Below, piece by piece: positions 2,579 to 32,444 of a stretch of 35,130 nucleotides of DNA. The DNA is from Deltaproteobacteria bacterium (GTDB lineage Bacteria; Desulfobacterota; Binatia; Binatales; Binataceae): positions 1 to 35,130 of the forward strand of contig PMOH01000323.1 in NCBI GenBank assembly GCA_003161515.1, given 5' to 3'. The notes under the pieces are model-generated. The model was given only the letters and a program-made list of their open reading frames with translations. It had not been told where the DNA came from and made no database searches. Positions within the stretch are counted from its first letter, which is position 1. The number at the start of each line of letters is the position of its first letter. The translations under genes were made by a program, and so were the position numbers.

Positions 2579-2597
2579 TTAAAGGTAGAGTTATCAG

Positions 2598-2960: not shown

Positions 2961-2965
2961 GGCAT

Positions 2966-6109: not shown

Positions 6110-6198
6110 CAAGTATCGGGAAGGGTGCAGTTTACACAACTGCTTGTGGTTTTGAGATGGGCATACCACCAACGCGAGACTCAAATGCGAACGCAAAT

Positions 6199-7740: not shown

Positions 7741-9432
7741 CTAGTTCGATCCAGTCGAACCCAGCAAATTGCCGCCCAGCGTTGCGTTGCCGACTGAGAC
7801 GTCGCCGATCACGTTTATCAGCGCGGGCTTGCCTGACTTGAACGCGCGCTCGAGCGCCGGCTTGATCTGCTCGTTGGTCTCGACCTGCTCGCCATGACAT
7901 CCCATCTCGGCGAAAATTTTGTCGTAGCGGATGTTCGGCAGCATGTTGAACGGATCGGTGCGGCCCTTCAGCCCCGGCATCTGATCGAAGTTCGGGCCCC
8001 ACGAACTGTTGTTCCACAGCACCGTGATTACCGGCAGCTTGTAGCGCGCCGCAGTCTCCATGTCCCAGCCGCCGATTCCCAGTCCGCCGTCGCCGCTAAT
8101 CACGACGACTTGCTGGCCCGGCCGCGCGAGCTGCGCACCGATGCCCATCCCGACGCCGTGACCGACCGGCGCGAGCGGACCCGCGTCCACCACCTGGCCC
8201 ATGAAGCGGCAGGTGAACGCGCGGCTCATCCATCCCGACAGCGTGAAGCTGTCGATGACGGTGGTCGCGTTTTTGTCGAGCACGGTGATCAGATCTTCGC
8301 ACAGGCGCGCCGGATGTATCGGCTGATTCTTCGAGACCTTCGCGTTCTGCTCCTTGATCGTATTGTCGAAGCGCTGACGCGTCTCCCAGACCTGCTTGAC
8401 CCACGGCGAAGTTTTGTTCTTCGAGAAGTCGAGCTTGAGTTCCTTGATGCGCTTGATCATCTGTTGCAGCACGATCTTCGGATCGCCGACCATCGGCAGG
8501 TCCGCGTTCACCTGCCATCCGATTCGCGTCGGCGTCGGATCGATCTGGATGTACTTGGCCTTGTCGGTCCAGGTCGGCGGCTGTCCGAAATGCTCGCCGC
8601 TCCAGAAACGGAAGCCGATGGCGACTACCACATCGGCGCCGCCGGTGAACGGCTTCTTGAACGCGCCGCGAATCGCCAGCGGATGCTCTTCTGACACGAC
8701 GCCCTGGCCGGCGCGACGTGCGTAAATCGGGATGTTCGTCAGTTCGACGAACTCCCGCATCTCGGCGCCCGCCTGCGACCAGAACACGCCGTCGCCGCAT
8801 GCGATCAGCGGACGCTCAGCCGCCACCAGCATCTCGAGCGCGCGATCGATCTTCGCCGGGTCGCCCGCCGAGCGGACGTCGTCCATCGTAAATTCGCGCG
8901 CGCCCTTGCGCTGCCCCGAGTCTTCTTCGTGGTGATAGAGAATGTTCTGCGGAATCTCGAACAGCGCAACGCCCTGCGGCGGCGAGATGGCCTCGCGGAA
9001 CGCGGATCGCAGATCGAACTGGATCGTGGACCAGTCGGTCACCCGCTTGGTGAACTTCGAGAAGCTATCGACGACCTCGGAGCCGTAGGCCTCCTGGAAC
9101 GATCCGAGATGATCCTCGGTATTCGGATGCTGCCCCGAGATGCAGACCACGGCGCTGTTGGTCAGTCCCGCGACGCATAGTCCCGTCACTGCGTTGGTGA
9201 GACCGCATCCCGCGGTCACCATGCACACGCCGACTTCGCCCGAGGTGCGCGCGTACGCGTCGGCCGCGTAGGCGGTCGCCTGTTCGTGACGCATGTGGAT
9301 GAGCTTGATGTCGTGATTGCGCAACTGGCCGAGGATCGGAAACAGATGCCCGCCGTTGATCGCGAAACAATACTTCACCCGATTCTCGCGCATCACGCGC
9401 GCAATTAATTCTCCGCCGTCAGCTTTCGCCAT
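7741..9432 (-). CDS. Thiamine diphosphate-dependent enzyme, acetolactate synthase/oxalyl-CoA decarboxylase-like family, 563 aa
   Basis: The ATG at 9432 is preceded by AAGGAG. The N-terminal Pyr domain (RHEQATAYAADAYAR..GVCMVTAGCGLTNAVTG) and the C-terminal ThDP-binding motif GDGGLGIGGWDMETAARYKLPVITVLWNNSSWG are diagnostic for the family. Substrate cannot be inferred. Confidence 0.88.
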   Translation of the reverse strand: MAKADGGELIARVMRENRVKYCFAINGGHLFPILGQLRNHDIKLIHMRHEQATAYAADAYARTSGEVGVCMVTAGCGLTNAVTGLCVAGLTNSAVVCISGQHPNTEDHLGSFQEAYGSEVVDSFSKFTKRVTDWSTIQFDLRSAFREAISPPQGVALFEIPQNILYHHEEDSGQRKGAREFTMDDVRSAGDPAKIDRALEMLVAAERPLIACGDGVFWSQAGAEMREFVELTNIPIYARRAGQGVVSEEHPLAIRGAFKKPFTGGADVVVAIGFRFWSGEHFGQPPTWTDKAKYIQIDPTPTRIGWQVNADLPMVGDPKIVLQQMIKRIKELKLDFSKNKTSPWVKQVWETRQRFDNTIKEQNAKVSKNQPIHPARLCEDLITVLDKNATTVIDSFTLSGWMSRAFTCRFMGQVVDAGPLAPVGHGVGMGIGAQLARPGQQVVVISGDGGLGIGGWDMETAARYKLPVITVLWNNSSWGPNFDQMPGLKGRTDPFNMLPNIRYDKIFAEMGCHGEQVETNEQIKPALERAFKSGKPALINVIGDVSVGNATLGGNLLGSTGSN

Positions 9433-9709
9433 TACTGAGCTCCTTTTGAGGAAATCTTTCCCGCTCGCATCGAATCCTTGCACATTTACCGCGTCGCCGA
9501 AAAGCGCGCGCGCGTACATGACGATTCGTTCAGGAAATTCCTCGCAGCAAACGCGCCCGCAGGGTTGATCGCTGAGTGTAAGCCTGTCACTTTTGACCAT
9601 CGTTCGGTGCTGTGGGCTCGGAGGTATCCGAGCGCTTGGGTTGTGGGTGGCGGAGCGGCGGGAGAGTAGCCGAATGCTAAACGACAAGGCTTAATTTCAG
9701 GATCTCACC

Positions 9710-11160: not shown

Positions 11161-14100
11161 CTAAGGCCCAGTCCCCGTGAGCGCGATATTATGCGGACTC
11201 GTCGGATCGCTCCCGACGCTAACCGCAATACTGGCGCTCTCCGCCGATGGCCCCGCCGTCGGCGTGAACGTAATCGCGATCGTGCACGTCGAATTCGCCG
11301 CCATCGTACCGCCGCCGCACGTCCCGCCCGTCACCGCGAAGTCGCCCGCGTTCGGCCCCGTAGTGCTGCTCTCGCTAACCGGCAGCGCAAATGCCGACAG
11401 ATTAGTCACCGTGATGTCTTTCGTCTTCGTCGGCGTCCTTGCCGTCAGCGTGCCGAATGCCAGCGTACTCGCCGGGATCACCGTCGCCGGAATATTCTCC
11501 GCGGTGGTTAACGGAACCATATACGGCCCCAGCGTATCTGGGCTGTCCGCAACCGTCATCAGCGCCGACTCCGTCCCCAGCTGGGTCGGAGCGTAGGTGA
11601 CAATCAGTGTGCAAATCGATTTCGCCGCCAGCGTCGATGCTGGTGTCAGCGTCAGGCAAGTCCCGCCCGTGACGCTGAAATCTGATGCGTTCGGTCCGCT
11701 GAACCCCGGCGGCAGCGTCAGCGTGACCGCATTCGTCTGGAAATTGTGCACCACGAACGTCTTCAGCCTCGTGGATCCAATCTTCACGCTGCCGAATGCG
11801 TAGCCCATCGGCGCAACCGTCATGTCCGCTACGCCGGTGCCGCTTGCCGCCACGCTCTGCGGACTGCTCGACGCGTTGTCATTGACCGACAACGTCGCGC
11901 TATGCGGGCCGAGTGCGCTCGGCGTGAACCCGATCGCGATCGTGCAGGTGGCCAGATGCGCAAGTCCGCCGCCCGGGCACGTAGTCGCGCCCGTCGCCGC
12001 AAATTCAGGATCGTTCGATGTCACGTTGCCGACGAACAGCAGGTTCGCGCCGGTATTCTTCACCGTGATGTTCTTGGTTGCTTCGTCCCCGACCGGAACG
12101 TTGCCGAACGCGAGCGAAGCCGTCACCGTCAGCGTGGTCGTTGGCGTCGCGGTCGCAGTCGGTGTCGCCGTTGAGGTTGCACTCGCCGTGGCGGTCGCTG
12201 TCGCAGTATTCGTCGCCGTCGCGGTCGCCGTCGCCGTGTTAGTCGCCGTCGCGGTCGCCGTGTTCGTCGCAGTTGCGGTTGCGGTAGCTGTGTTCGTCGC
12301 GGTTGCGGTAGCTGTCGCGGTCGCAGTCGCGGTTGCGGTTGCGGTAGCTGTTGCGGTCGCTGTTGCGGTCGCGGTCGCCGTCGCCGTGGCAGTAGGAGTC
12401 GCGGTCTTGGTGGCGGTTGCGGTCGGCGTCGGGGTCGGCGCAGGCGCGCCCAAAGCGTAGAAGGCGCTGGACGCGCTTAAGAAGCCCTGCACCGCGCCGA
12501 AGTAAACGGTCCCATCGGCGCCGATCGCCGACGAAATTGACGCTATCTGTCCGCCCGAAAATACTTTCTCCCACTTCTTGGTGACGTCGCTTGGACCACC
12601 GTCGGTTAACGCGTAGTAGTCGCCGTTATCGTTGCCGACGAAAATGGTCCCGTCGCCGCCAACAACTGGCGCGGTCGCGACCTCATTGCCGGTCGCGAAT
12701 GCCCACTTCTTTGCCGCGCTGGCGCCGTTGTCAGTCAGCGCGACGACGTTGCCATTAAAGTCGCCAAAGTAAATGGTCCCGTCAGCGCCGATCGCTAATG
12801 CGGTCGACACATTGCCGCCGGCTGAGTCTGAGTAAACCCAATTCTGCGTGGGGGGAGTGCCCGAAGCGGGCATGCAGGTGGGGCAATAGGGACCGTTGTC
12901 AGTCACCGAGGCGATGTAGACAGAGTTGCTGACGTAGTAAATCGTCCCGTTGGCGCCGATCGACGGATTCCCCATCAATATCGCGTTAGGGATAGCCCAT
13001 TTCTCAACCGGGCAGGTGTAAGGGCTTCCGTTGTTTGGGCAGGTCGTGACTGTATTGGCCTCGATCGCGTAGTTCTCGATGTATATCGTGCTGCCGTCGG
13101 CGCTCAGCGCCGCATTTCCTGAAACCCCACGGAACTCCCACTTCTCTGCGGCAGTGCCAGCTCCGGTGCATGCGGCGACCGGGCTCCCGACACCGGTGCA
13201 CTCGACGACCGCCTGGAGTTCATTGTCAGCTCCTATGTAAATGGTCCCGTCGGGCCCGACCAGCGGTGATCCGCCGCCCGCCCCTAGATTTTCGCCTTCG
13301 AACGCCCACTTCAGGGTGCCGTCGGCAATGTTTAGCGCGTAGAGGTGGGCACCGGCGACGAAGTAGATCGTGTTGCCGTCGTTGCTGATCGCCGGCGAGC
13401 CTATCGGCGTATCGGAGGTGGCTAATGTGTACTCCCACTTCTGCGTGCCGTTGGGATTTAGAGCGAAGAACTGGAGGTTACCAACCGCGTGATTACCGAA
13501 GTAAATGATCCCGTTCGCGTCGATTACCGGCGCGACCAGCAAAAATCCACTCGGGGTTGAGACCGACCACTTAACCGCGCCCGTGTTGGTGCTGGTGTCG
13601 AACGGGCTTCGGCCCCTGCGCGCGTTATTGTATTGAAACGTCGGCCATACAGCCTGACTGACATCCACGTTCACGGGTTGCGATGGAATGCCGTTTGCGA
13701 TGACCTTCATCGTGACCGAACCCAGCAGCGATGTGACCGCCGGTACATCGAATTTAGTCGAGACCGGTGCGCTGCCCGTCGCGACTCCCATAGTGCTGTG
13801 GTCGTGAGTACGGAAATAAGAGACTTGTCCCGCGTTGTTGGTCACCTGCACCAATGGATAGTTAGTAGCACCCTGGTAGTCGTCTCCGTAGCCAACTGCC
13901 TGCGACAGGCCGTTGAACTGCGTGCCGGTCAGTTGGTAGGTCTTGCCGGGAGTCACCTGGACCGGGAAGTTGGTGATGGTCGGCTCCCATGCCGGATTGT
14001 AAGTACCCGCGGGCGTGTAGATCTCGACATCGCTGGTACCATCGGTCCACAGAACCTGGCCGCTGGGGAGCGGCAGCAGGCGCCCATTGAACGCTGGCTC

Positions 14101-15339
14101 ATTGGCCGCATTGGGAGGCGCGGCCACCGGCGTCAGGCTGGCCCCATCGAACTCGAAAAATTCGGCTACCCGTGACGTACAGCTGCCGTCCACCGGCGAA
14201 ACCGCCATCAGCACGTTGCCATCGGTAAGCAGCGCCGCCGGTGCATCCTCCGCAGCTAATTGCTCCGTCGTGTTGGTACAACTTCCGACAGTGATCGTGA
14301 TAGTCGGGAAACCGGGACCGGGGCTCCACAGACCGGTGATCGTGTCGTAAATGTCGTTGAAGCCGGTCGCTCCTTCATCGAAGAGGGTGCCGTCGGGACG
14401 CAATATGGCCGGTCCGATTTCGTCAGCCGAGATGTCGACCAAGGGATCCGGCGCGGTCCCGGTAACCTCCCAGTCCTGCTCGACCGGGTTATAAACCAGG
14501 GCCGGAGTTTCGGTAGTGTCAAGCGAGTTGTGATTCTGCATGGTCAGGACTTCGCCGTTAGGCAGCAGCGTCCACCCTTCCTCGTCATTGCCATGGTCTT
14601 CAGCGGACTTCCCCGGAGGGGTGAAAGGCGGGTTAAAAGTGGGCGGGTTCGTGTTGACGTCTAATGTGGCGACGTCAAAACCGAAGTCATCCGCGACCAT
14701 AAAGGTTCCGTCGTCCAGAACCACCGACGCGGCATCGCCTATCTTGGTCCATCCTGTGGGAGCCGTGATGCATGTCCAATTGTTGTGGACCGGATCGTAA
14801 ATAGCGCCTTGGTCGGTCCAGACCGTACCGCCAGTATTGCCTCCCATTGAATCGTAGTTGTAGTTGTATTCGCCGCCGACCATTACGAACCGGCCATCGG
14901 GCAAGACCGCCGACGCGTAGAACAGCGGGGAGTAAACCGTGTCCGCGGAAAAGTTGCCATTGGGGCAATTTGATGGCGCCGCCACCTGGCTCCATTGTCC
15001 ATTTATATAGCTGCCGGAATTGTCGGGGGTCAGCGTCCACCAGGCGACGTTAAGCAGGTTTCTATCTTCGGCCAGAATTCTGCCGTCGGTGAGCACGAAT
15101 ACGCTCTGGGGACCAAATGACGGCTGATTATTCAGCGGTGTCCAGGTGCCCGAGATTGCGCCGGGCGCGCCGAACCCACCAGAAACCTGCTCCGAAGGAT
15201 GCGGATGCGGCACCGGCTGCGCCAATTGTGCCTGCACCAGCCGCGGATTGTTCAACACCACAATCGCCAGTATCGCCAACCCAGCCGAGCCCAGGATCGC
15301 GATCGCGCCGACCCGCACTCTCCCCCACGATGCCTTCAT
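11161..15339 (-). CDS. Giant secreted/cell-surface protein, ~1392 aa
   Basis: The ATG at 15339 lies 6 nt downstream of GAGGAGG; a GTG at 15345 is also in frame. Domain order: (1) hydrophobic N-terminus VGAIAILGSAGLAILAIVVL. (2) A kelch/galactose-oxidase-like propeller ending in an E-set-type segment (PAWEPTITNFPVQVTPGKTYQLTG...NGIPSQPVNV). (3) About 8 repeats of the D-G-T-I-Y-F/I-G + KW type, as in PQQ/BamB-like propellers. (4) A ~105-aa (TA)n linker. (5) Three ~95-aa Ig-like repeats (LAFGNVPVGDEATKNITVKNTG...C..I..FTP...SGTG). Confidence 0.85.
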   Translation of the reverse strand: MKASWGRVRVGAIAILGSAGLAILAIVVLNNPRLVQAQLAQPVPHPHPSEQVSGGFGAPGAISGTWTPLNNQPSFGPQSVFVLTDGRILAEDRNLLNVAWWTLTPDNSGSYINGQWSQVAAPSNCPNGNFSADTVYSPLFYASAVLPDGRFVMVGGEYNYNYDSMGGNTGGTVWTDQGAIYDPVHNNWTCITAPTGWTKIGDAASVVLDDGTFMVADDFGFDVATLDVNTNPPTFNPPFTPPGKSAEDHGNDEEGWTLLPNGEVLTMQNHNSLDTTETPALVYNPVEQDWEVTGTAPDPLVDISADEIGPAILRPDGTLFDEGATGFNDIYDTITGLWSPGPGFPTITITVGSCTNTTEQLAAEDAPAALLTDGNVLMAVSPVDGSCTSRVAEFFEFDGASLTPVAAPPNAANEPAFNGRLLPLPSGQVLWTDGTSDVEIYTPAGTYNPAWEPTITNFPVQVTPGKTYQLTGTQFNGLSQAVGYGDDYQGATNYPLVQVTNNAGQVSYFRTHDHSTMGVATGSAPVSTKFDVPAVTSLLGSVTMKVIANGIPSQPVNVDVSQAVWPTFQYNNARRGRSPFDTSTNTGAVKWSVSTPSGFLLVAPVIDANGIIYFGNHAVGNLQFFALNPNGTQKWEYTLATSDTPIGSPAISNDGNTIYFVAGAHLYALNIADGTLKWAFEGENLGAGGGSPLVGPDGTIYIGADNELQAVVECTGVGSPVAACTGAGTAAEKWEFRGVSGNAALSADGSTIYIENYAIEANTVTTCPNNGSPYTCPVEKWAIPNAILMGNPSIGANGTIYYVSNSVYIASVTDNGPYCPTCMPASGTPPTQNWVYSDSAGGNVSTALAIGADGTIYFGDFNGNVVALTDNGASAAKKWAFATGNEVATAPVVGGDGTIFVGNDNGDYYALTDGGPSDVTKKWEKVFSGGQIASISSAIGADGTVYFGAVQGFLSASSAFYALGAPAPTPTPTATATKTATPTATATATATATATATATATATATATATATATATNTATATATATNTATATATNTATATATATNTATATATASATSTATPTATATPTTTLTVTASLAFGNVPVGDEATKNITVKNTGANLLFVGNVTSNDPEFAATGATTCPGGGLAHLATCTIAIGFTPSALGPHSATLSVNDNASSSPQSVAASGTGVADMTVAPMGYAFGSVKIGSTRLKTFVVHNFQTNAVTLTLPPGFSGPNASDFSVTGGTCLTLTPASTLAAKSICTLIVTYAPTQLGTESALMTVADSPDTLGPYMVPLTTAENIPATVIPASTLAFGTLTARTPTKTKDITVTNLSAFALPVSESSTTGPNAGDFAVTGGTCGGGTMAANSTCTIAITFTPTAGPSAESASIAVSVGSDPTSPHNIALTGTGP
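12137..12452 (-). repeat. Coding low-complexity tandem repeat: (Thr-Ala)n with periodic Asn/Pro, 6-nt periodicity
   Basis: The plus strand reads GTCGCn/GTTGCG hexamers almost without interruption. It translates on the minus strand to PTPTPTATATKTATPTATATATATAT...TNTATATATATNTATATAT. ATNTATATAT-type higher-order units recur 4 times. Confidence 0.9.
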
Positions 15340-15469
15340 CAGCACCCTCCTCGACGAGACTCACTGATCATGGAACCCCCTGCGATGCTGGTGAAGGCGA
15401 ACTAATTGCTGTGCCAAGGCCCATCTCCACCCGTCGTGGACGATAACGACGAGTCAGATTTCGCGGCAA

Positions 15470-15485
15470 TACGTAGTTTGACGTA
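15470..15485 (+). promoter_or_regulatory. Candidate operator/-35 element TACGTAGTTTGACGTA upstream of the LuxR-type regulator gene
   Basis: Inverted half-sites TACGT/ACGTA flank a 6-nt spacer, and TTGACG (15478-15483) is -35-like with CACAAT 18 nt downstream. A near-identical 16-mer sits in the same orientation upstream of the paralogous regulator (30400-30415). Confidence 0.3.
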
Positions 15486-15539
15486 TATGCGACTTAAGGC
15501 GCACAATCCGCGTGGCTGATCCGGGACCCGGGGGGATTC

Positions 15540-16613
15540 ATGTACCGCTACACGCGCAATGACTTCGATCGCGTGCTTGAGTTCGTCAGAGGCCTCTATG
15601 AGCCTCGAAGCCTTGGCGCGTTCAGCGACCATTTGCTCTCCTCACTCCGCACGCTCGTCCCCTCCGTGTTCAATGGCGTAGTATCGGTTGAAGTCAGGAA
15701 TGCTCAGCAGGCCTGGACCACGCGCACCAACCCCCCTGAGTTTGTCTCCCCGGAACTTGACGAAATTGCCACGCGCCATGTGCCTGAGAGCGCGATCTTC
15801 AGCCACTTCGAGCGCACTGGTTGTCAGCAATTCACGCGATGGTCCGACATACAGCCATTGTCACAATTTCTGCGCACTGCGCTTTACAACGATGTGTATC
15901 ACCAGTTGGGGGTCAAAGATTGTTGCTCATTGATCTCGCACTCCAGTCCCACTCGGCTCGAAATCGTAGGAGTCACTCTGCACAAGCAGATTCCCGATGC
16001 GCACCGGGACGTCCTCGTCTCGATTTCGCCGCACTTGCGCCAGGCCTTTCGCCTCGCGCATACCAGCTCGGCGCTAATCGAAATGGCGGCCATGAAAAGC
16101 GGTCCGAATGGCTCCGAACGCGGCATCGTGGCGATCGACCCGGACGGTACCATCACGATGGAAACCCCGGGCGCGACCAGATCGCTAGAGAAGTTTTTCC
16201 CGAAACGAACCGCACGAGGCTTGCCCGAGCCGTTGGCCCAGTGGATATCGCAATCGGACGACACGCTTCGAAAGTCCACCGACGTTCCGAAGGTTCGGCG
16301 TCCGTTTGTGATCGAGCAGCCTGGCAACCGCCTGACCGTCCATCTGCTCTCCAGGCCCGCGCAGAATTTCCTGCTGTTCGAAGAACGTCCGTGGGCGATC
16401 GATCCCGCCGCTCTCGCAAGTCTTCCGTTGACCCATCGTGAGTCAGAAATCCTGGCCTACGTCGCAGCCGGCAAAACCAATTTCGAGATTGGGATTATCC
16501 TCGGCATCAGTTCGCGCACCGTCGAGAAACACATCGAGCACATCCTGGATAGCCTCGGCGTCGAAACCCGCACCGCCGCCGCCGCATCCGCCCTCGAAGC
16601 CGCCAACCTATGA
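15540..16613 (+). CDS. LuxR/FixJ-type HTH transcriptional regulator with a long uncharacterised N-terminal sensor-like domain, 357 aa
   Basis: C-terminal LuxR HTH LTHRESEILAYVAAGKTNFEIGIILGISSRTVEKHIEHILDSLGVETRTAAAA. No receiver or autoinducer-binding motif recognised in the N-terminal ~290 aa. Divergent from the giant gene. Paralogue of 29281..30366. Confidence 0.85.
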   Translation: MYRYTRNDFDRVLEFVRGLYEPRSLGAFSDHLLSSLRTLVPSVFNGVVSVEVRNAQQAWTTRTNPPEFVSPELDEIATRHVPESAIFSHFERTGCQQFTRWSDIQPLSQFLRTALYNDVYHQLGVKDCCSLISHSSPTRLEIVGVTLHKQIPDAHRDVLVSISPHLRQAFRLAHTSSALIEMAAMKSGPNGSERGIVAIDPDGTITMETPGATRSLEKFFPKRTARGLPEPLAQWISQSDDTLRKSTDVPKVRRPFVIEQPGNRLTVHLLSRPAQNFLLFEERPWAIDPAALASLPLTHRESEILAYVAAGKTNFEIGIILGISSRTVEKHIEHILDSLGVETRTAAAASALEAANL

Positions 16614-16688
16614 GTTCTGCCGACAAGAACAGTTTCCGGCTGCACATAGCGCGCGCGCTCCCGGGCTGGTATCTGAGAGGAGTCTGCT

Positions 16689-17726
16689 TTGCCTCAGATG
16701 CGGCTTTCCGAACTCGACTACGAATTGCCTGAAGAACTGATTGCGCAGGAGCCGCTCGCTCGTCGCGACGAGGCGCGCCTGCTCGTGCTCGATCGCAAAT
16801 CCAAGTCAGTCGAGCATTCCCGCTTCTACAAACTCGTCCGCCATCTGCGCGAAGGCGACCTGATCGTGCTCAACGACACTCGAGTGCTGCCGGCGCGCCT
16901 GTTCGCGCAGAAGGAATCGGGCGGCCGCGTCGAGTTGCTGATGGTGCGGCCGGCCAGCGCGGCTGAAGGTCCAAGTGGCGCATGGCTCGCGCTGATTCGC
17001 ACGCATCGTGTGCTCAAAGACAATGCGCGGCTCATCCTGGGTGACGGTCACGTCCTGAGAATCACCGGCTATGCGCGACCGGGACGCCCGGTCGTCGTGG
17101 CAGAGGGAGAGGTGTCGATCGAGCAGATCCTCCAACTCGATGGCATGCTCGCGCTACCTCATTATATACATCGCACCGTCGGGCCCGCCGATCTCGACGA
17201 CTACCAGACCGTGTATGCGTCGCGGCCCGGCGCGATTGCGGCGCCAACCGCGGGCCTGCATTTTACCGACGACGTTTTCAAGGCGCTGGCTGACGCGGGT
17301 ATCCGCACTGCGACGGTGACGCTGCACATCGGTCCCGGCACTTTCGCGCCGGTGCGCGCCCTCGACATCGAGAGTCACACGATGGAATCCGAGTGGTACA
17401 CGATTCCGCCGGCGACGCAGTCGGCGGTCGAGCATGCGCGGCGAATCGGCGGGCGTATCATCACGGTCGGCACCAGTTCGACCCGCGCGCTCGAGTCGTG
17501 GGCGATTACCGGCGACATCGAGGGTTTCACTGGCCTCTTTATTCATCCGGGCTTTCGCTTCAAGCTGGCAGACGCGATGCTGACGAACTTCCACATGCCG
17601 CGCACCACCGTGCTCGCGCTCGTGATGGCGTTTGCGGGACGCGATCAGATTCTCAGTGCGTACCGTGAAGCGATTCGCCATCGCTACCGCTTCCTCAGCT
17701 ACGGCGACGCGATGTTGATCCTGTGA
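16689..17726 (+). CDS. queA: S-adenosylmethionine:tRNA ribosyltransferase-isomerase
   Basis: MRLSELDYELPEELIAQEP, LPHYI, YQTVYA, AAPTAGLHFT, GTSSTRALES and TNFHMPRTTVL are classic QueA motifs. TTG at 16689 lies 7 nt after GAGAGGAG; the ATG at 16698 is an alternative start. Followed by tgt. Confidence 0.93.
   Translation: MPQMRLSELDYELPEELIAQEPLARRDEARLLVLDRKSKSVEHSRFYKLVRHLREGDLIVLNDTRVLPARLFAQKESGGRVELLMVRPASAAEGPSGAWLALIRTHRVLKDNARLILGDGHVLRITGYARPGRPVVVAEGEVSIEQILQLDGMLALPHYIHRTVGPADLDDYQTVYASRPGAIAAPTAGLHFTDDVFKALADAGIRTATVTLHIGPGTFAPVRALDIESHTMESEWYTIPPATQSAVEHARRIGGRIITVGTSSTRALESWAITGDIEGFTGLFIHPGFRFKLADAMLTNFHMPRTTVLALVMAFAGRDQILSAYREAIRHRYRFLSYGDAMLIL
16709..16748 (+). repeat. Right copy of the 40-bp direct repeat (within the intact queA 5' end)
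   Basis: CGAACTCGACTACGAATTGCCTGAAGAACTGATTGCGCAG matches 11063-11102 at 38 of 40 positions. Confidence 0.85.
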
Positions 17727-26356: not shown

Positions 26357-26779
26357 ATGTCGATAGCTGTTGAGTCGCCGACAAGAAGCGAACGCAGCGT
26401 GGCTGAATCGAACAAACCCGACTCTGAGTCTCAAGAGAACGACGAACGCGTCGAGCAGCTAGCCAAGGAGCTGGCCGACCGTCTGCGCGCGATGCCTAAT
26501 CGGCAGGAACTCACCGACTATGCGGTGAGCCTGCTGAAAGAAAGCAACGAAGACGCGGGCACGTCCGAGCAGGCGGCCGCGATGGTCGAGCGGGCGGCGC
26601 GCAACGATCCTTTCAACCCGATCGCATTCGCAATCCCACTATTCGTGATCGGCGCCGTCCTGTGCGCGACGGGAATCCTCGCCGGCGTCGGCCTGGGCGT
26701 AATCGGAATCGCAGTACTGATGGTGCTGTGGGGCCTGATCGTCGCCTTCTTCAGCCGCTTCCGCCGCGGCGCCGAATAA
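26357..26779 (+). CDS. Hypothetical protein with acidic soluble N-terminus and two C-terminal TM helices, 140 aa
   Basis: ORF 42 nt downstream of copA with good third-position G+C. TM segments IAFAIPLFVIGAVLCATGILAGV and GVIGIAVLMVLWGLIVAFF. No family recognised. Confidence 0.5.
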   Translation: MSIAVESPTRSERSVAESNKPDSESQENDERVEQLAKELADRLRAMPNRQELTDYAVSLLKESNEDAGTSEQAAAMVERAARNDPFNPIAFAIPLFVIGAVLCATGILAGVGLGVIGIAVLMVLWGLIVAFFSRFRRGAE

Positions 26780-26965
26780 GCCCTATTCGTCTCCTCGTTT
26801 GAGTTAAGCGTGGCGCAGCGATAGCTAAGTGGCTGCCATGTGCGATTAGTCCAGCCCTCGGGCGCTTCCCAACGTTGCGAAGGTGAATAGCGAGACTGGC
26901 GTTTCGAGCCCGCCGGGGGACTGATTCGCGCAGGAGTGTGCGCTCTGTCCAGGGAGGGACCAGAG

Positions 26966-27742
26966 ATGAAACGGAAGCTATCAGCAGTAGTGTTTTTTGC
27001 GGCGGCGGCGATGCTCGCGTGCGCCGCATCGGCGGGCGCGGTGGACGGCACCATCGAGATCAACCAGGCGAAGGTGCTGGCGGGGAGCGGGTTTCCCTAC
27101 TTTATCACCAGCAGCGGAAGCTACCGCCTTACCGGCAATCTCACAGTTTCGGCGGCTTTCGACGCAATCGATGTGACAGCGAACAACGTCACCATCGATT
27201 TGAACGGGTTCTCGATTGTCGGAGCCGGCGGTGGTTTCGGAATTAATGCGTCAGGAAATAACGACGTTACGGTGGAAAACGGGGCGGTCACCGGATTCAC
27301 CAATGGTGTTGACGTGGGAACCTCCGGCATCGTCAGAAACGTGCACGCCGATGGGAACACAGGTGGCATCTTTGGAGGGAACAACACCGTGATCGAAGGT
27401 TGCACGGCAAACAGCTCTACTACATTCAACGGAATAACCTGCGCCGCGGGGTGTGCGATCTCGGGCAATACGGCCAACGGCAATGCTGGCGTCGGCATTA
27501 ATTCCGGCAACGGGTCCGTGATTTCCGGCAATACTGCGTTCCACAACACCAGCAACGCGGGTATCAACTGCTTCGGGAGCGGATGTCTGATCACCGGCAA
27601 TACTGCTTTCAACAACAGCATTGGCATCGCCGCAAGTGATGGAACTACTGGCTACGCAGGGAATGTGCTGGACCAAACCACGAACGTCGGGGGGGGGACC
27701 AACCTCGGCCACAATCTCTGTAGCGGAACCATCTGTCCGTAG
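26966..27742 (+). CDS. Secreted right-handed parallel beta-helix repeat protein, 258 aa
   Basis: The ATG at 26966 is preceded by AGGGAGGGA. Signal peptide MKRKLSAVVFFAAAAMLACAASAGA. About 22-aa turns recur with I-x-G-N-T-A-x-x-N (ISGNTANGN, ISGNTAFHN, ITGNTAFNN). Confidence 0.75.
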   Translation: MKRKLSAVVFFAAAAMLACAASAGAVDGTIEINQAKVLAGSGFPYFITSSGSYRLTGNLTVSAAFDAIDVTANNVTIDLNGFSIVGAGGGFGINASGNNDVTVENGAVTGFTNGVDVGTSGIVRNVHADGNTGGIFGGNNTVIEGCTANSSTTFNGITCAAGCAISGNTANGNAGVGINSGNGSVISGNTAFHNTSNAGINCFGSGCLITGNTAFNNSIGIAASDGTTGYAGNVLDQTTNVGGGTNLGHNLCSGTICP

Positions 27743-27824
27743 CGGAACCACTTGCTGAGGCTTGCGAAGGCGCGAAGTGCTCTCCTATCGAAAAGTTCGA
27801 CACCCGGCATCGCTTGGCGGCCAT

Positions 27825-29258
27825 ATGCGGTTTGTCGCGAGCAACCTCGCGATGCTGGTGGCGGCGATCTTGATAACCGTCGCGCCCGCTGCGGCGCAGA
27901 CCGCTTTGAGCATGATCTGCGTCTCGCCCGACATCACCGTGGCTCTAACCAGCGGAACCATCACGCCCCAAATGGTGCAATGCTACTCATTTCCGTCTGG
28001 CACGGCGGCGATCAACTTTGTCGGAATCCCGGCGGGGGTTAACGTCACCGGATATTTTCCTGAGAGCGCTTCGCAGATCCTGCTGACGATCGATACCACG
28101 TACGCACTGCCGACGGACGGCAGCGGAGATACAGTGACTGTGACTCCGCGCGACGTCGCTTCGTATTCTCCGTCCACCGGCTTTTTCTCGTCGGCGCTCT
28201 TCTTCACGGGCGAGAGCTTCAGCATCCCCGACGGCGTTCGGATCGACGCGCTCGGAAAGAACTCGTTGGGACATCTGCTGCTCTCATTCGATGTGACTTT
28301 CAGTTTACCGAAGACGGGCGGGGGAATGCTGACAGTCAAACCGGCTGATATCGTGTCGTTTGACGGCGCCGGCTATTCGCTGGTTTTCGACAGCGCCGCA
28401 GCCGGCATCGCCGACGGAACGAACCTCGATGGCGCCACGATGCTGCCCAATGCCGATCTGTTGATAGCGTTCGATGAGTTCGGCTCGATCGGTGGGGTCA
28501 ACTTCGCGCCGGAAGAAGTGCTGGAGTTCAATCCTGGCGCCAGCAGTTGGGTGCTGTCCTTCGACGGAATCGTCCGCGACAATTGGCCCGACGGCAGTAT
28601 CATTCAGGGCGTCTATGCACAGGTGCCAGCGACCGCGACTTCAACTCCAACCGCGACCGCGACAGCCACTGCCTCCGCGACATCGACCGCGACCAGGACT
28701 GCAACGCCGACCGCAACTGCGACATCAACCGGCGGGACTCCTACTGCTACCTCAACAAAGACTGCTACACCGACGGCTACCAAGACGGCGACGGCTACAG
28801 CAACCGCGACATCAACCGGCGGGACTCCTACTGCGACCGCGACCGCAACTAGGACGGCGACGGCAACTGCGACGTCGACCGGCGGAACTGCGACTGCGAC
28901 GCCGACTGCCACGCCTACTCCGGTGCCGGTGACGCTCAAGATCAAACCGAAGTCGCTCAAGTTTTCGAAGACCACGGTTGGCACGACGAGCAAGCCGAAA
29001 AAGGTTAAGGTGTCGAATCCCAAAGGCAAGAAGAAGCATCCGGGGTTTCCGGTGTTGATCGAATTGATTTCCGATGCGGGTCCAGGAGTGTTCATGCAGA
29101 CGAACAACTGTCCCGCGAGTCTGTCGGCCGGCTCCTCTTGTTCAATCTCGGTGACGTTCACTCCGAGCGCAGCCACCAAGCAGACCGGAACGCTGACGAT
29201 TACCGACAACGGGAAGGGTGGTATGCAGAAGGTGCCGCTGAGCGGGACCGGGAAATAA
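27825..29258 (+). CDS. Secreted protein: orphan three-repeat N-terminal domain + Thr/Ala/Pro linker + terminal Ig-like domain, 477 aa
   Basis: The ATG at 27825 gives signal peptide MRFVASNLAMLVAAILITVAPAAAQ. The linker spans 28627-28925. The terminal domain LKFSKTTVGTTSKPKKVKVSN...CPASLSAGSSCSISVTFTPSA...LTITDN...VPLSGTGK is homologous to the C-termini of the GH30 and giant proteins. Confidence 0.75.
   Translation: MRFVASNLAMLVAAILITVAPAAAQTALSMICVSPDITVALTSGTITPQMVQCYSFPSGTAAINFVGIPAGVNVTGYFPESASQILLTIDTTYALPTDGSGDTVTVTPRDVASYSPSTGFFSSALFFTGESFSIPDGVRIDALGKNSLGHLLLSFDVTFSLPKTGGGMLTVKPADIVSFDGAGYSLVFDSAAAGIADGTNLDGATMLPNADLLIAFDEFGSIGGVNFAPEEVLEFNPGASSWVLSFDGIVRDNWPDGSIIQGVYAQVPATATSTPTATATATASATSTATRTATPTATATSTGGTPTATSTKTATPTATKTATATATATSTGGTPTATATATRTATATATSTGGTATATPTATPTPVPVTLKIKPKSLKFSKTTVGTTSKPKKVKVSNPKGKKKHPGFPVLIELISDAGPGVFMQTNNCPASLSAGSSCSISVTFTPSAATKQTGTLTITDNGKGGMQKVPLSGTGK
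28627..28925 (+). repeat. Coding Thr/Ala/Pro low-complexity linker with three STGGT(P/A)TAT units
   Basis: ATATSTPTATATATASATSTATRTATPTATATSTGGTPTATSTKTATPTATKTATATATATSTGGTPTATATATRTATATATSTGGTATATPTATPTP. ACn-GCn periodicity is visible in the DNA. Confidence 0.85.
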
Positions 29259-29280
29259 GTTTATCGCGCTTCAGCCGCTC

Positions 29281-30366
29281 TTAAGAATCGCGCATTGCGG
29301 ACCATGCGATTGCGGCCGCGGCGGTGCGGGTTTCGACGCCGAGTTTCCGGTGGATGCGCTCAACATGCTTGTCCACGGTCTTTCGCGTGATCGACAAAAT
29401 CGCCGCCGTCTCGCGGCTGGTCTTGCCCTTCGCGATCCAAAACAACACTTCGGCTTCGCGCCGTGAGAGGCCCAGTTGGCGCAGCGATTCCGGAGAATCT
29501 TGTCCCACTTCGCGGCTCAGCAATAGCAGGACCTCGTCGGGCCGCCTCGTCGTGAGCATCCGGATGTTCAGGCGCGCCCCTTCTGATTCCACCGTCAACG
29601 GGGAGCACGGCCGGACACCTGATTGTTTGCCGTCCGCTGACGTTTGCCAAAAACGAACCCATCGCAGAAGGAGATCCGGCAGCTTGTGATTCGGTTCCAG
29701 ATCGTCGCGGAAGAAGCTCGACAACCATCGGATCGCGGAACTGCTCGCGTGTTTGATCGTCAGGTTATGAACGACCACGACCGCAGAATTTACCGCTTCT
29801 TCGAGCGCTTGTTCGCGGCACTCGAGTTCGCTCCGGACCGTAGTCATTGCCTCGGCGTTCGCGTATGCCTGCTGCAGATGTGGGCGCAACTGATTGAGCA
29901 GATCGCGCTCGTCTTCGGTGAAGTCCATCGTCTCTCGGCCGAAGGCCAGCGTCACGATATCGCCGGCCGCTGACACCTCGAATCCGCCCGTCATCAGGTA
30001 TTCGACTCGCGCCGGCCAATACACCACGTCGTAGAGCTCGAGCCGATGAAACTGCCGCTGCGAAAGAAGGTCCGACATCTTCAGCGCGCGCTGATCGGTA
30101 TTGCGGTTGTGCAGGACCATCGGATGGTGATGCATCAGACGCGCGAGGGTTTCGTCCGCGTCAGGAACGCGCGCCCCAAGGGAAGGGGTCGCGAAGCTCT
30201 CGAACCGACGGCGCGAAAAGTTGGTTTCATTGAAACCGCATGAATCCGCGCTAATCAGCCGCGGGAGCAGTCCAATCACATGCCTTGGGAAGCTGTCGAG
30301 CGTTTGCGCCGAATATAACTCCGGCAGCAGACGCGCCAACTTTTCGTATTGCACCCGTTCGGTCAT
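29281..30366 (-). CDS. LuxR/FixJ-type HTH regulator, paralogue of 15540..16613, 361 aa
   Basis: C-terminal LSRREAEVLFWIAKGKTSRETAAILSITRKTVDKHVERIHRKLGVETRTAAAA. The N-terminal domain is collinear with the other regulator (ELYSAQTLDSFPRHVIGLLPRLI versus GLYEPRSLGAFSDHLLSSLRTLV; LRPHLQQAY versus ISPHLRQAF). Divergent from the GH30 gene. Confidence 0.85.
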   Translation of the reverse strand: MTERVQYEKLARLLPELYSAQTLDSFPRHVIGLLPRLISADSCGFNETNFSRRRFESFATPSLGARVPDADETLARLMHHHPMVLHNRNTDQRALKMSDLLSQRQFHRLELYDVVYWPARVEYLMTGGFEVSAAGDIVTLAFGRETMDFTEDERDLLNQLRPHLQQAYANAEAMTTVRSELECREQALEEAVNSAVVVVHNLTIKHASSSAIRWLSSFFRDDLEPNHKLPDLLLRWVRFWQTSADGKQSGVRPCSPLTVESEGARLNIRMLTTRRPDEVLLLLSREVGQDSPESLRQLGLSRREAEVLFWIAKGKTSRETAAILSITRKTVDKHVERIHRKLGVETRTAAAAIAWSAMRDS

Positions 30367-30399
30367 CGGTGGGTACGTACATTTCCGTATTGTCCAGCG

Positions 30400-30415
30400 T
30401 ACGTCAAATGCCGTA
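30400..30415 (-). promoter_or_regulatory. Candidate operator/-35 element TACGGCATTTGACGTA upstream of the LuxR paralogue
   Basis: On the minus strand it reads TACGGCATTTGACGTA, 34 nt upstream of the ATG at 30366. 13 of 16 positions match 15470-15485, including the full TTTGACGTA 9-mer. Confidence 0.3.
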
Positions 30416-30524
30416 ATAGTAGGTCAATTGTGTCAATGATAACTTTTAGTATGAAAAATAGCGTTCAAGCTAATCGGCGTTCTTCCTGAGACTCAAAACT
30501 GGGTCGAACTGCCCGTTCTGTTCG

Positions 30525-32444
30525 ATGAGGGAGCGAATGAAGAGGTATTTAGGAAAATACATGACCATGGCGATTGTGCCAACTACGGCCCCAGCGCTGG
30601 TGAATTCCGCGATGGAGCGGTCTAGCAAGAAACCGGGCTTGTTTCTGACCCTCGTAGCGGCCCTCGTCCTATCATTTTCCGGATTTGGCAGTGCGCATGC
30701 GGAAACGGCAACGATCGACTGGACGAATGTTCACCAGATTATCGACGGCTTCGGCGCATCGGATACGTTCGCCGGCCCGCTCACATCGGCGAACCAGGCT
30801 TTCTTCTTTGGGACGGGGAGCGGACAGCTTGGTCTGTCCATACTGAGAACAGGAGTTCCAGACAACAGCGAGGTTGCCGGAAGCTGCACAACGGTTAGCG
30901 TAGGGTGTGCGGGTCCGTATGTCAGTGATATGAAGGCGGCCATTGCCAATGGAGCAATAATCTATAGCTCTCCCTGGACGCCGCCACCTGCCTACAAAAC
31001 AAACGGTCTCGGCACATGCACCAGCAGTGCTGGGTTGATAACTTCGGATTACGCTGCCTATGCAACCTGGCTTGCTAACTATGTCAAAAGTTTGCAAACG
31101 GAAGAGGGCATTACTCTCTACGCGTTATCGGTCCAGAATGAGCCAAACATATGCCTTAGCTACGATTCCGCTGTCTGGACGGCGGCCGAGATCGATACGT
31201 TCGTAGCGACCAACCTGGGTCCCACCTTTGCCGGGGATGGGCTGTCTACTCTCATCTACGTGCCAGAGGGCAGCGGCTACAACGAGATGAGTCTGGGTAG
31301 TACCTGCGCCACCGACTCGTCTTGCAACAAATACATCGGCGGCGTCGTTTGGCATGACTACGATGCCAACCTTGCCGGCTCAAACACAATTGCAGCGGAT
31401 ATTTACCCTGCCGACTGGCCTGAGGGAAAGAAATATTGGCAGACAGAAGCTTCTTGTGGCTCCGGTTTTGGGCCGAATTTTTGTCAATCGGGCTTTAACA
31501 CCGATATCACAGATGCGCTTGACTGGGCCGCAGTCATCGACCAGCGAATCGCCGTCGACGATGCAAATGCGTGGCTATACTGGTGGCTGGTCGGTCTGGA
31601 TAGCACCGATGACCAAGCGTTGGTGAACAGCAGTGGCACTATCGCAAAGCGGGCCTACATGCTGGGGCAGTACAGCAAATTTGTACGGCCGGGATATTCC
31701 CGGATAGATGCGACGCACCTTCCAGCAACAGGAGTTAGCGCCTCGGCCTACCAAAACACCGCCACTGGTTCTCTGGTCATCATCGCGACCAACTACAGTG
31801 GTTCTGACGTCTCCCAGGACTTCGCTGTAACCAACGCTCCCGCATTTTCGAGCGTGACTCCGTACACTACCTCTGCGAGTTTGAGTCTCGCCAAACAAGC
31901 GAATGTAGCGGTGTCATCGAATTCGTTTACCTATAAATTGCCGGCGGACAGCATCACGACACTTACCTCTTCGGCCTCCACGGGCGCCACTCCAACTCCG
32001 ACAGCAACCGCGACGCCTACTCCGACGGCAACCTCGACCGCTGCAACTCCAACTCCCACGGCGACGGCATCGGCAACTCCGACTGCCACGCCGACTCCTG
32101 TCGGGATGGTGTCGATCAAGCCAACTTCGGTGAATTTTGGAACGAAGACGGCCGTCGGAAAAACCAGCAAGCCAAAAACGGTTATCGTCAAAAATGATGG
32201 CAACAAAAATGGGGGGCTGGCCGTCACCATCGAGATGGAGAGCGCGTCCCCGTCGGTGTTCGCGGTGAAGTCGCAATGCAAGAAGACGCTCAGCCCGGGC
32301 AAGAGCTGCAAGGTGTCAGTGACCTTCAAGCCGGTGGATGATACGACGGCTGAGACTGGCAAGCTTATGATTTTCGACAACGCGAGTGGCTCGCCACAGT
32401 CAGTGCCGCTCTCCGGAACCGGAAAGGCCGCCAAGAAAAAATAG
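30525..32444 (+). CDS. Secreted glycoside hydrolase family 30-like enzyme + Thr/Ala/Pro linker + terminal Ig-like domain, up to 639 aa
   Basis: GH30 hallmarks: IDGFGASDTF; LSVQNEPN (acid/base Glu); YWQTEAS (nucleophile Glu); beta-sandwich tail YMLGQYSKFVRPGY. The signal peptide follows the Met at 30612 (MERSSKKPGLFLTLVAALVLSFSGFGSAHA). ATGs at 30525, 30537 and 30612 are all possible starts. The C-terminal domain is VNFGTKTAVGKTSKPKTVIVKN...CKVSVTFKP...VPLSGTGKAAKKK. Confidence 0.85.
   Translation: MRERMKRYLGKYMTMAIVPTTAPALVNSAMERSSKKPGLFLTLVAALVLSFSGFGSAHAETATIDWTNVHQIIDGFGASDTFAGPLTSANQAFFFGTGSGQLGLSILRTGVPDNSEVAGSCTTVSVGCAGPYVSDMKAAIANGAIIYSSPWTPPPAYKTNGLGTCTSSAGLITSDYAAYATWLANYVKSLQTEEGITLYALSVQNEPNICLSYDSAVWTAAEIDTFVATNLGPTFAGDGLSTLIYVPEGSGYNEMSLGSTCATDSSCNKYIGGVVWHDYDANLAGSNTIAADIYPADWPEGKKYWQTEASCGSGFGPNFCQSGFNTDITDALDWAAVIDQRIAVDDANAWLYWWLVGLDSTDDQALVNSSGTIAKRAYMLGQYSKFVRPGYSRIDATHLPATGVSASAYQNTATGSLVIIATNYSGSDVSQDFAVTNAPAFSSVTPYTTSASLSLAKQANVAVSSNSFTYKLPADSITTLTSSASTGATPTPTATATPTPTATSTAATPTPTATASATPTATPTPVGMVSIKPTSVNFGTKTAVGKTSKPKTVIVKNDGNKNGGLAVTIEMESASPSVFAVKSQCKKTLSPGKSCKVSVTFKPVDDTTAETGKLMIFDNASGSPQSVPLSGTGKAAKKK
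31969..32103 (+). repeat. Coding Thr/Ala/Pro low-complexity linker
   Basis: SSASTGATPTPTATATPTPTATSTAATPTPTATASATPTATPTP. Same compositional type as the linkers in the other two secreted proteins. Confidence 0.85.

Follow-up and report, generated by a model that had tools for sequence, protein, structure and literature searches.

The genome of a Deltaproteobacteria bacterium (Binatales; contig PMOH01000323.1) carries, within a stretch of 35,130 nucleotides (nt) that we refer to as the window, two genes for LuxR-type regulators, Reg1 and Reg2, each divergently transcribed from a gene for a large exported protein. This arrangement raises the question of whether such regulators are dedicated to the exported-protein genes, here called cargo, that lie beside them. 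Our analysis favors, with a probability of roughly 0.6, a reading in which Reg1 and Reg2 would act as ligand-responsive one-component regulators that bind DNA, autoregulate and control the adjacent cargo gene, in one direction or the other. The genes concerned are listed below, with lengths in amino acids (aa).

11161 to 15345, minus strand: cargo 1, exported protein of 1394 aa that begins with a signal or anchor and contains propeller regions of Kelch/PQQ-like type, a (TA)n/TP linker and three Ig-like domains of the choice-of-anchor D (CoA-D) type
15540 to 16613, plus strand: Reg1, 357 aa, in which an N-terminal sensor region that aligns collinearly with the one in Reg2 precedes a LuxR (GerE) helix-turn-helix (HTH)
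27825 to 29258, plus strand: exported protein of 477 aa, with an N-domain without assignment, a Thr/Ala/Pro (T/A/P) linker and one C-terminal CoA-D; convergent with Reg2
29281 to 30366, minus strand: Reg2, 361 aa, with a GAF-like domain (residues 1-150), a long helix (151-192), a PAS-like domain (194-287) and a LuxR HTH (292-360)
30525 to 32444, plus strand: cargo 2, exported GH30-like hydrolase of 639 aa, with a leader (about 30525-30712), a core (about 30712-31986) and a T/P/A linker plus CoA-D (about 31986-32444)

Paralogous regulators beside genes for exported proteins

Over 351 collinear residues, Reg1 and Reg2 share 27% identity (BLASTP, E = 4e-27), which identifies them as full-length paralogs. 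Both carry the GerE/LuxR HTH (PF00196) at the C-terminus (E 7.7e-15 and 2.4e-15; 54.7 and 56.3 bits against a cut-off of 23.5) and end in LGVETRTAAAA. A first-pass annotation, made from the letters alone, had described this common ending and a collinear N-terminal region of about 290 aa, and had placed Reg1 divergent from the giant protein (cargo 1) and Reg2 divergent from the GH30-like protein (cargo 2). BLASTP, PF00196 and the translations agree with the first statement, and intergenic regions of 194 bp (cargo 1-Reg1) and 158 bp (Reg2-cargo 2) separate the two divergent pairs. Searching with Reg2 matched 980 homologs, the top ones from Candidatus Binatus; in Binatus contigs, orthologs of Reg1 were 68-79% identical and those of Reg2 69-87% identical to the window proteins. 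Matches to PDB sequences were confined to residues ~255-358, mostly from ~278 onward, and no receiver domain (Response_reg) was matched in Reg1, Reg2 or the family members scanned with Pfam. Response-regulator models of NCBIfam matched only the HTH, as did the EpsA model TIGR03020 (60.8 and 50.6 bits; cut-off 170), which was the best or second-best NCBIfam match for both regulators.

The same linker and terminal domain had been reported for all three large exported proteins, and this was confirmed by NF012200 (the NCBIfam CoA-D model, cut-off 45), by Pfam Ig models and by the translations. The NF012200 scores were 114.7 bits for cargo 1 (three copies), 56.1 for the 477-aa protein and 47.2 for the GH30-like cargo; the tails go under the Pfam names ASH, Cep192_D4 and HYDIN/VesB Ig, and the CoA-D domains of the 477-aa protein and the GH30 cargo are 51% identical. 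Each protein combines a signal-peptide-like N-terminus with a Thr/Ala/Pro linker and CoA-D, and stops 0-6 residues beyond that domain (...SGTGK*, ...TGTGP* and ...SGTGKAAKKK*), with no PEP-CTERM, LPXTG or type IX secretion system (T9SS) C-terminal domain (CTD) following it. The likely true start of cargo 1 is Met3 at 15339, and candidate start codons of cargo 2 lie at 30525, 30561 and 30612. Judged by its profile scores, cargo 2 is clearly GH30-like: the NCBIfam XynC-like model gave 201.9 bits (E 1.8e-59; equivalog cut-off 650), Glyco_hydr_30_2 gave 24.9 (27) and Glyco_hydro_30C gave 22.2 (22).

At the DNA level, the T/A/P linkers at 12146-12437 and 28629-28881 consist of imperfect tandem repeats with periods of 6, 18, 24, 30 and 87. 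When the GH30 CoA-D tail was used as a protein-database query, it returned almost only ~100-aa open reading frames (ORFs) on short contigs and was uninformative on the attached cores, which suggests that linker repeats break assemblies and gene calls.

A palindrome common to the regulator promoters

The motif TACG-N8-CGTA occurs exactly three times in the window, and all three copies fall in the two regulator-cargo intergenic regions, against an expectation of 0.18; none of 100 shuffles reached three.

15470 to 15485: Reg1 box, TACGTAGTTTGACGTA, 54 nt upstream of the Reg1 ATG and ~125 nt from the cargo 1 start
30374 to 30389: box B, CAATACGGAAATGTACGTA on the minus strand, ending 7 nt upstream of the Reg2 start codon
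30400 to 30415: box A, TACGGCATTTGACGTA on the minus strand, 33 nt before the Reg2 ATG; its distance to cargo 2 is ~110-200 nt, depending on the start codon

Box B is the counterpart, by position, of the Reg1 box and has the CAATACG prefix as well, and half-site-like GTCAAT repeats lie beyond box A at 30424-30438. Alignment of Reg2-type promoters from eight Binatus loci revealed a near-invariant box A followed by box B in an otherwise divergent intergenic region, with one extra upstream box copy in some loci; in the four Reg1-type promoters aligned, GGCAATACGTCATTTGACGTAT was near-invariant and the intergenic remainder was likewise divergent. The Reg1 promoter of locus L100 carries the box as a perfect palindrome, TACGTCAATTGACGTA (L numbers designate the loci compared with the window). 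The 11-mer N[AG]TTTGACNTA is highly specific in its placement, as each of its 15 sites in 177 kb of Binatus loci lies just upstream of a regulator gene or a truncated regulator copy. By promoter scan, the Reg1 box overlaps a sigma70-like -35 element on the plus strand (TTGACG at 15478, an 18-nt spacer and CACAAT ending at 15507).

Beyond Binatus, ATACG-N8-CGTAT was found at 47 sites in 1.51 Mb of loci, a set chosen by this HTH type (KLGVETRTAA-type), against 0.55 expected. Among distant full-length members, the density of sites was 21-fold higher within 700 bp of the regulator. Four Acidobacteria loci have the box consensus TAATACGCCGAAAGGCGTATTGC positioned after the regulator gene, and three of them (L010, L012 and L016) have another box 0-190 bp ahead of the neighboring gene, which encodes a He_PIG protein of 1,600-2,800 aa. 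A comparable element has been examined experimentally in CrbR, a LuxR-family protein whose activation of the acs promoter depends on an imperfect inverted repeat, e.g. TACGACTAAAGTCTAAA, located between -52 and -36 (PMC5715377). Taken on its conservation and placement, the palindrome is quite likely to be the cognate operator of this HTH type, and Reg1 and Reg2 probably recognize essentially the same site. Because the boxes and the recognition helices are near-identical, the two regulators probably also recognize each other's sites and would then form one small regulon.

The Acidobacteria loci contain, in addition, a small HTH-only LuxR-type ORF of ~125-134 aa (L010 11081-11627, L011 11108-12040, L012 11093-11650 and L016 10911-11601), situated between the gene for the full-length GAF/PAS-LuxR protein and that for the giant He_PIG protein and preceded by the TAATACGCCGAAAGGCGTATTGC boxes. 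Most of the loci L024-L082, which were retrieved via the common HTH peptide, pair a hybrid histidine kinase of ~1,120-1,180 aa with a receiver-LuxR response regulator in one operon, and by reading of their N-termini these proteins appear CrbS/CrbR- or RpuS/R-like. In many of them ATACG-N8-CGTAT lies just upstream of the kinase gene (e.g. L031 6197-6214 and L045 6066-6083), a position that suggests autoregulation of the operon. We had considered loci with an HTH-only match as a control for large neighboring genes, and dropped them when they proved to be such operons; the control is invalid because these operons hold a ~1,100-aa kinase gene.

Regulator-cargo linkage and replacement of cargo cores

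Subsequently, we compared the surroundings of the regulators across Binatus loci. Orthologs of Reg2 retain a frame of cytochrome b cluster, slot, Reg2, 130-140-aa gene and Cu-ATPase in most loci, with a beta-lactamase gene in place of the Cu-ATPase in L084 and L100. In every locus with enough sequence, the Reg2 ortholog is divergent from a gene for a CoA-D protein, and this protein varies. Sister regulators, ~70% identical, occupy another conserved frame that extends from ribonucleotide reductase to PhaC.

Reg2 slot, window: GH30
Reg2 slot, L001/L002: Pel9A-like beta-helix
Reg2 slot, L084, L085 and L100: GloVer-like repeats plus 2-5 CoA-D domains
Reg2 slot, L090: DUF7948 plus SBBP propeller
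Sister-frame neighbor, L098: 82%-identical ortholog of the window GH30 cargo
Sister-frame neighbor, L097: fragmented GloVer/CoA-D gene
Sister-frame neighbor, L099: COesterase without CoA-D

For Reg1 orthologs, the surroundings are of at least four kinds. The window and L088 pair Reg1 with the giant protein; in the other loci, a smaller exported protein (176-485 aa) is the neighbor.

Reg1 context 1: next to queA (window, L087, L084)
Reg1 context 2: next to a NusG paralog and a GT4 glycosyltransferase (L088)
Reg1 context 3: next to a NusG paralog and a methyltransferase (L086)
Reg1 context 4: immediately beside the Reg2 module (L100)

Several features of these neighborhoods deserve separate mention. 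The 82% identity between the GH30-CoA-D cargo of the window (30525-32444) and that of L098 (2882-4783) exceeds the 70% of the adjoining regulator. The NusG-paralog genes near Reg1 orthologs (L086 9236-9754 and L088 1044-1565), one of them beside a GT4/WbaP-like glycosyltransferase, hint at a link to surface-polysaccharide loci. On the other side of Reg2, the window encodes a 140-aa protein without Pfam match (26357-26779), and a similarly placed gene of 100-137 aa, also without Pfam match, lies directly 3' of the Reg2 orthologs in L001, L002, L083, L084, L085 and L100; this small gene adjoins the 3' side of Reg2 except where a 2.5-kb insertion, described below, intervenes, and it may belong to the Reg2 module.

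Alignment of L001 with the window by blastn delineated a replacement of the cargo core. DNA identity is 79-90% on both sides of the core, with the leader (30525-30712) and the linker plus CoA-D (31986-32444) both matching, whereas the ~1.3-kb cores, GH30 in the window and Pel9A-like in L001, have no similarity. The encoded proteins show 47% identity in the leader and 79% in the tail, and the tail of the L090 propeller protein is likewise 79% identical to that of the GH30 cargo. Altogether, six distinct CoA-D cargo architectures were present among the Binatus loci.

The window contains, moreover, an insertion on the 3' side of Reg2, delimited by blastn against related loci, which brings the 477-aa gene next to the regulator.

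26769 to 29281: 2.5-kb insertion carrying the beta-helix gene and the 477-aa CoA-D gene
26936 to 27742, plus strand: exported right-handed beta-helix protein of 268 aa (Pfam Beta_helix 23.0 bits, below the 25.9 cut-off)

It is absent from L001, L083, L084, L085 and L089, where the flanks are conserved and position 26768 joins almost directly to 29282, and is present only in L092, in a form 97.5% identical to the window. The ORF coordinates match the earlier description of Reg2 as convergent with 27825-29258, itself downstream of the beta-helix gene. No operator site was found upstream of the 477-aa gene by the TACG-N8-CGTA scan of the window; because the gene lacks such a site and is located in a strain-specific insertion, its proposed membership in the regulon is not supported. 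The statement that one regulator-cargo copy sits inside an apparent insertion fared better, as the giant/Reg1 pair lies between Omp85 and queA in the window and L001 and L100 have neither gene there. The suggestion that the module is possibly mobile did not hold up: no transposase or integrase appeared in the Pfam annotation of the window, no tRNAs or Rfam elements were found, and no direct or inverted repeats flank 26769-29281. Given the lack of all these signatures, we favor recombination between conserved flanks over a mobile element. The variation looks like homologous or illegitimate recombination, for which the conserved sequence on the side of the regulator and the repetitive linker/CoA-D on the other would supply the handles.

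Other traces of rearrangement lie near the same genes. L087 carries a truncated duplicate of the Reg1 5' region together with its box (6121-6744; box 6247-6261), 1.7 kb upstream of the intact Reg1 ortholog, and L088 carries, downstream of its Reg1 ortholog, an 84%-identical fragment of the 3' end of the giant gene comprising the last CoA-D (9350-9521), which suggests a recombination scar and CoA-D DNA as a recombination handle. A homolog of the window beta-helix protein, 60% identical, occupies the variable slot upstream of Reg1 in L087 (4604-5401). L003 encodes a Pfam Beta_helix protein (685-1605) upstream of a Reg2-like gene, in which BLASTP detected no similarity to the window beta-helix protein. 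In L100, a BglII-like restriction endonuclease and an N6/N4 methyltransferase (16112-17637), absent from the window, lie between yajC and tgt.

Does this recurrence reflect control of the cargo by the adjacent regulator? A CoA-D is encoded by the divergent neighbor in 10 of 15 Binatus loci and by ~3 of 168 other genes (~200 kb), which gives a Fisher P of ~1e-10, or 3e-9 after collapsing the loci to context and cargo type, values that overstate independence because the Binatus loci are phylogenetically related. A stronger argument for linkage is that two specific pairs persist across different chromosomal contexts, GH30-Reg2 in the window and L098, giant-Reg1 in the window and L088. A single-sequence search of metagenome contigs gave 8 loci, and a profile search of genome contigs with the family alignment supplied distant members, with almost no Binatus loci among the matches listed. 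An ORF of at least 800 aa lay within 1.5 kb in 10 of the 20 full-length-member loci from other phyla among the matches listed, compared with 0.16 expected per locus (P = 4.5e-4), the background being a crude estimate, namely the far-flank density of raw ORFs. Nine of these ten large neighbors have extracellular-type domains (He_PIG, Big_2/Big_9 Ig repeats, FG-GAP, DUF11, dockerin, S8 peptidase), and further distant loci have NHL-propeller, CARDB or PEP-CTERM neighbors. A purpose-built CoA-D hidden Markov model (HMM) found no CoA-D near the distant-phylum members, and the CoA-D link is therefore specific to Binatus.

Chance adjacency of CoA-D proteins and LuxR regulators, both of which would simply be common in Binatia, is highly improbable in light of these counts. 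The window does contain three CoA-D genes in 35 kb, one of which, 27825-29258, stands beside Reg2 only through the strain-specific insertion and has no box; yet CoA-D is rare outside the regulator-adjacent position in the ~200 kb of Binatus loci, and a common palindrome, conserved pairs and a cross-phylum pattern would all have to be coincidental. The first-pass proposal of a dedicated regulon thus stands insofar as regulator plus exported cargo recurs beyond chance with a common palindrome, and the terminal Ig-like domain is indeed enriched beside the regulators; the CoA-D link itself is strong but not absolute.

Besides the limits attached to the statistics above, further observations weigh against control of the cargo. 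In 5 of 15 loci the divergent neighbor is without CoA-D (the COesterase of L099, small exported proteins in L086 and L087, a 485-aa exported protein in L100 and none in L003). The boxes, at 7-54 nt from the regulator ATG, are much nearer to it than to the cargo start (110-200 nt) and could serve autoregulation only. Moreover, no convincing sigma70-type promoter could be placed for Reg2 relative to its boxes, for which we considered a leaderless mRNA, nor could one be placed for either cargo gene.

These points also feed the alternative that the regulators only autoregulate and have their real targets elsewhere, the cargo accumulating at a recombination hot spot through homology of the repetitive linker and CoA-D. 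The lack of conservation among loci in the cargo-proximal part of the intergenic region and the recombination remnants (the CoA-D fragment of L088 and the truncated Reg1 copy of L087), together with the tandem-repeat linkers, agree with it. We nevertheless regard it as unlikely: it does not account for the two pairs that stay together across contexts, for the Acidobacteria box directly in front of the giant neighbor gene, or for the recurrence of large extracellular-type neighbors in several phyla without CoA-D or these linkers. On balance, we lean toward control of the cargo gene by its adjacent regulator, at odds somewhat better than even.

In the preferred reading of autoregulation combined with cargo control, the paralogs Reg1 and Reg2 would be one-component transcription factors from a large, still un-named clade of the LuxR family, and their tandem GAF-like/PAS-like module may sense a small molecule or a cofactor state. 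The GerE-type HTH, as a dimer, is predicted to bind the 16-18 bp palindrome (CA)ATACG-N8-CGTAT (Binatus form TACGNCATTTGACGTA), and the palindrome in the regulator's own promoter, over the predicted -35 of Reg1, would mediate autoregulation of either sign. From the common intergenic region, the regulator would also switch the divergent exported-protein gene. The neighboring gene position may thus serve as an expression socket, in which the regulator, the operator and sometimes a signal-peptide leader would be fixed on one side and the T/A/P linker and CoA-D Ig-like domain would usually be kept on the other, the functional core (GH30 hydrolase, Pel9A-like lyase, GloVer-repeat protein or SBBP propeller) being swapped by recombination. 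We can only tentatively extend this picture to the whole GAF/PAS-LuxR clade, whose members might be phylum-spanning switches for giant or modular extracellular-protein genes that use one operator, ATACG-N8-CGTAT; in the sockets of Binatia, the CoA-D tail might serve as a functional tag in secretion or in retention at the surface and, at the same time, as a recombination handle that diversifies the exoproteome. We consider this extension doubtful.

The sensor region and its relation to known systems

To what does the N-terminal region of the regulators correspond? The earlier reading had left it unassigned, and at the sequence level this holds: the first ~290 aa had no match in Pfam, NCBIfam or PDB sequences, and among 54 family members scanned with Pfam at E <= 1, GAF and Autoind_bind were never detected and PAS_4 was detected in two. 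At the level of fold, an assignment could be made. AlphaFold2 models built from family alignments, one full-length (mean predicted confidence, pLDDT, 87.6) and one of residues 1-290 (pLDDT 87.4), agree on an alpha/beta domain (1-150), a ~40-residue helix (151-192), a PAS-like alpha/beta domain (194-287) and, in the full-length model, a four-helix HTH (helices 292-360). Foldseek searches against the PDB gave as the top match the ligand-binding domain (LBD) of VqsR (5xhx), with a template-modeling (TM) score of 0.72 normalized to the target, a root-mean-square deviation of 4.1 A and 171 columns, followed by other LuxR-receptor LBDs (CepR2, TM 0.61-0.65; LasR, 0.56-0.58; also QscR, TraR and SdiA). 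Overall, the LuxR-receptor LBD matches had E values of 1e-7 to 1e-5, target-normalized TM scores of 0.46-0.72 and identities of 12-17%. A second class of matches comprised pairs of domains joined by a long helix, namely bacteriophytochrome GAF-PHY, PDE5 GAF-A/B, DhaR(N) and PpsR N-Q-PAS1. By these models the sensor region almost certainly has a tandem GAF-like/PAS-like small-molecule sensor fold, a known fold rather than a new one, and the modeled likeness of its first half to the LBDs of acyl-homoserine lactone (AHL) receptors is at fold level only.

The family so defined is large. With only the N-domain as query, phmmer found at least 2,445 of 1.84 billion representatives (clustered at 50% identity) at E <= 1e-3, of which 1,196 passed E <= 1e-10; almost all have lengths of 350-375 aa. 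By its sequences, the family is large and architecturally uniform, and neither Pfam nor NCBIfam has a model of its sensor region.

Because AHL-receptor LBDs (VqsR, CepR2, LasR, QscR, TraR, SdiA) were the best Foldseek matches, we weighed the possibility that Reg1 and Reg2 are quorum-sensing LuxR solos, in which a divergent autoinducer-binding N-domain would respond to an AHL-like or other diffusible signal and switch on exoenzymes and adhesins at high density. Exoenzymes are classic quorum-sensing targets, and the palindromic box over the -35 resembles a lux box. Against this stand the low identity to those LBDs, the failure of Autoind_bind to match any of the 54 members even at E <= 1, and a length that exceeds that of AHL receptors by ~120 aa, with an additional helix and PAS-like domain; no autoinducer synthase was found among the Pfam-annotated genes of the window. 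Canonical AHL receptors have conserved Trp and Asp ligand contacts, and a 43-sequence family alignment has no conserved Trp in residues 1-150, as judged by a residue mapping made on sequence rather than on structure superposition. We do not class Reg1 and Reg2 as AHL receptors because no Trp is conserved in the first domain and Autoind_bind was never detected, and we hold the quorum-sensing explanation to be improbable.

Among described systems, AHL-type LuxR receptors and solos (TraR, LasR, RhlR, QscR, SdiA, CepR2, VqsR) are nonetheless the closest by fold. They are alike in combining a GAF/PAS-class LBD with a C-terminal GerE HTH, and have a palindromic operator near or over the -35 and frequent autoregulation, similar to the Reg1 and Reg2 boxes. 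They differ in being two-domain proteins of ~240 aa, compared with 357-361 aa and an extra ~40-residue helix and PAS-like domain in Reg1 and Reg2, which moreover have no luxI partner in the window. A cognate luxI-type synthase is not required for LuxR solos.

By HTH and operator, the closest are the CrbR/ErdR-type regulators (PMC5715377), with a closely related KLGVETRTAA-type HTH and a required imperfect inverted repeat (ACTU motif; half-site TACGAC) just upstream of the -35. Those proteins have a receiver domain, a hybrid kinase partner and phosphorylation control, and govern acetate or pyruvate use, whereas Reg1 and Reg2 have neither receiver nor kinase partner. EpsA (TIGR03020), which is associated with XrtB/PEP-CTERM, is also a LuxR-HTH regulator tied to exported proteins with a common C-terminal domain; it differs in its N-domain, only the HTH of Reg1 and Reg2 matches its model, the window cargo is without a PEP-CTERM signal and an exosortase is not present. 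Tandem GAF/PAS sensors (DhaR GAF-PAS, PpsR N-Q-PAS1, and PAS-LuxR proteins such as PDB 3clo) likewise connect two alpha/beta domains and a long helix to a DNA-binding output, but have other output domains or another domain order and no detectable sequence relationship to Reg1 and Reg2.

The cargo proteins recall dockerin-bearing cellulosomal enzymes and T9SS CTD cargo, in which unrelated cores with low-complexity linkers also bear one common C-terminal beta-sandwich, the tail being kept and the cores exchanged. CoA-D (ASH/HYDIN/VesB-like Ig) differs in having no demonstrated sorting or docking role and no cognate secretion or scaffold genes nearby, and the exchange takes place here at a fixed locus beside a dedicated regulator.

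By analogy, the system would work like a LuxR solo or one-component activator beside its target. This is not a new principle, as ligand-sensing LuxR proteins beside their targets and modular exoenzymes with common tails are both well known. Searches of the literature on choice-of-anchor domains, Binatia LuxR proteins and GAF/PAS LuxR adhesin regulators yielded nothing on this system; what is new is a regulator family that is widespread and has no name yet, the conserved operator predicted for it, and its repeated association, not described before, with exported-protein genes that can be swapped. Binatia and Acidobacteriota are abundant in soil and for the most part uncultured, next to nothing is known of how they regulate secreted enzymes and adhesins, and the predicted operator could be used to compute regulons from metagenome-assembled genomes. 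The loci also show clearly how, in nature, a catalytic core is replaced at a regulator-linked site while the leader before it and the C-terminal Ig-like tail behind it are conserved. If confirmed, the proposed control would help predict when these organisms deploy polysaccharide-degrading enzymes and surface proteins, and would hint at the function of the choice-of-anchor D domain.

The remainder of the window is ordinary chromosome, with KaiC/KaiB and a PAS histidine kinase, a thiamine pyrophosphate (TPP) enzyme, Omp85, queA-tgt-yajC-secDF, a Cu-ATPase and cytochrome b. The first of these, at 824-4524, is a cluster of KaiC (584 aa) and KaiB (one or two genes, of which only 2966-3307 was tested) followed by the PAS histidine kinase, and is a circadian-clock-like output module in a non-cyanobacterial genome.

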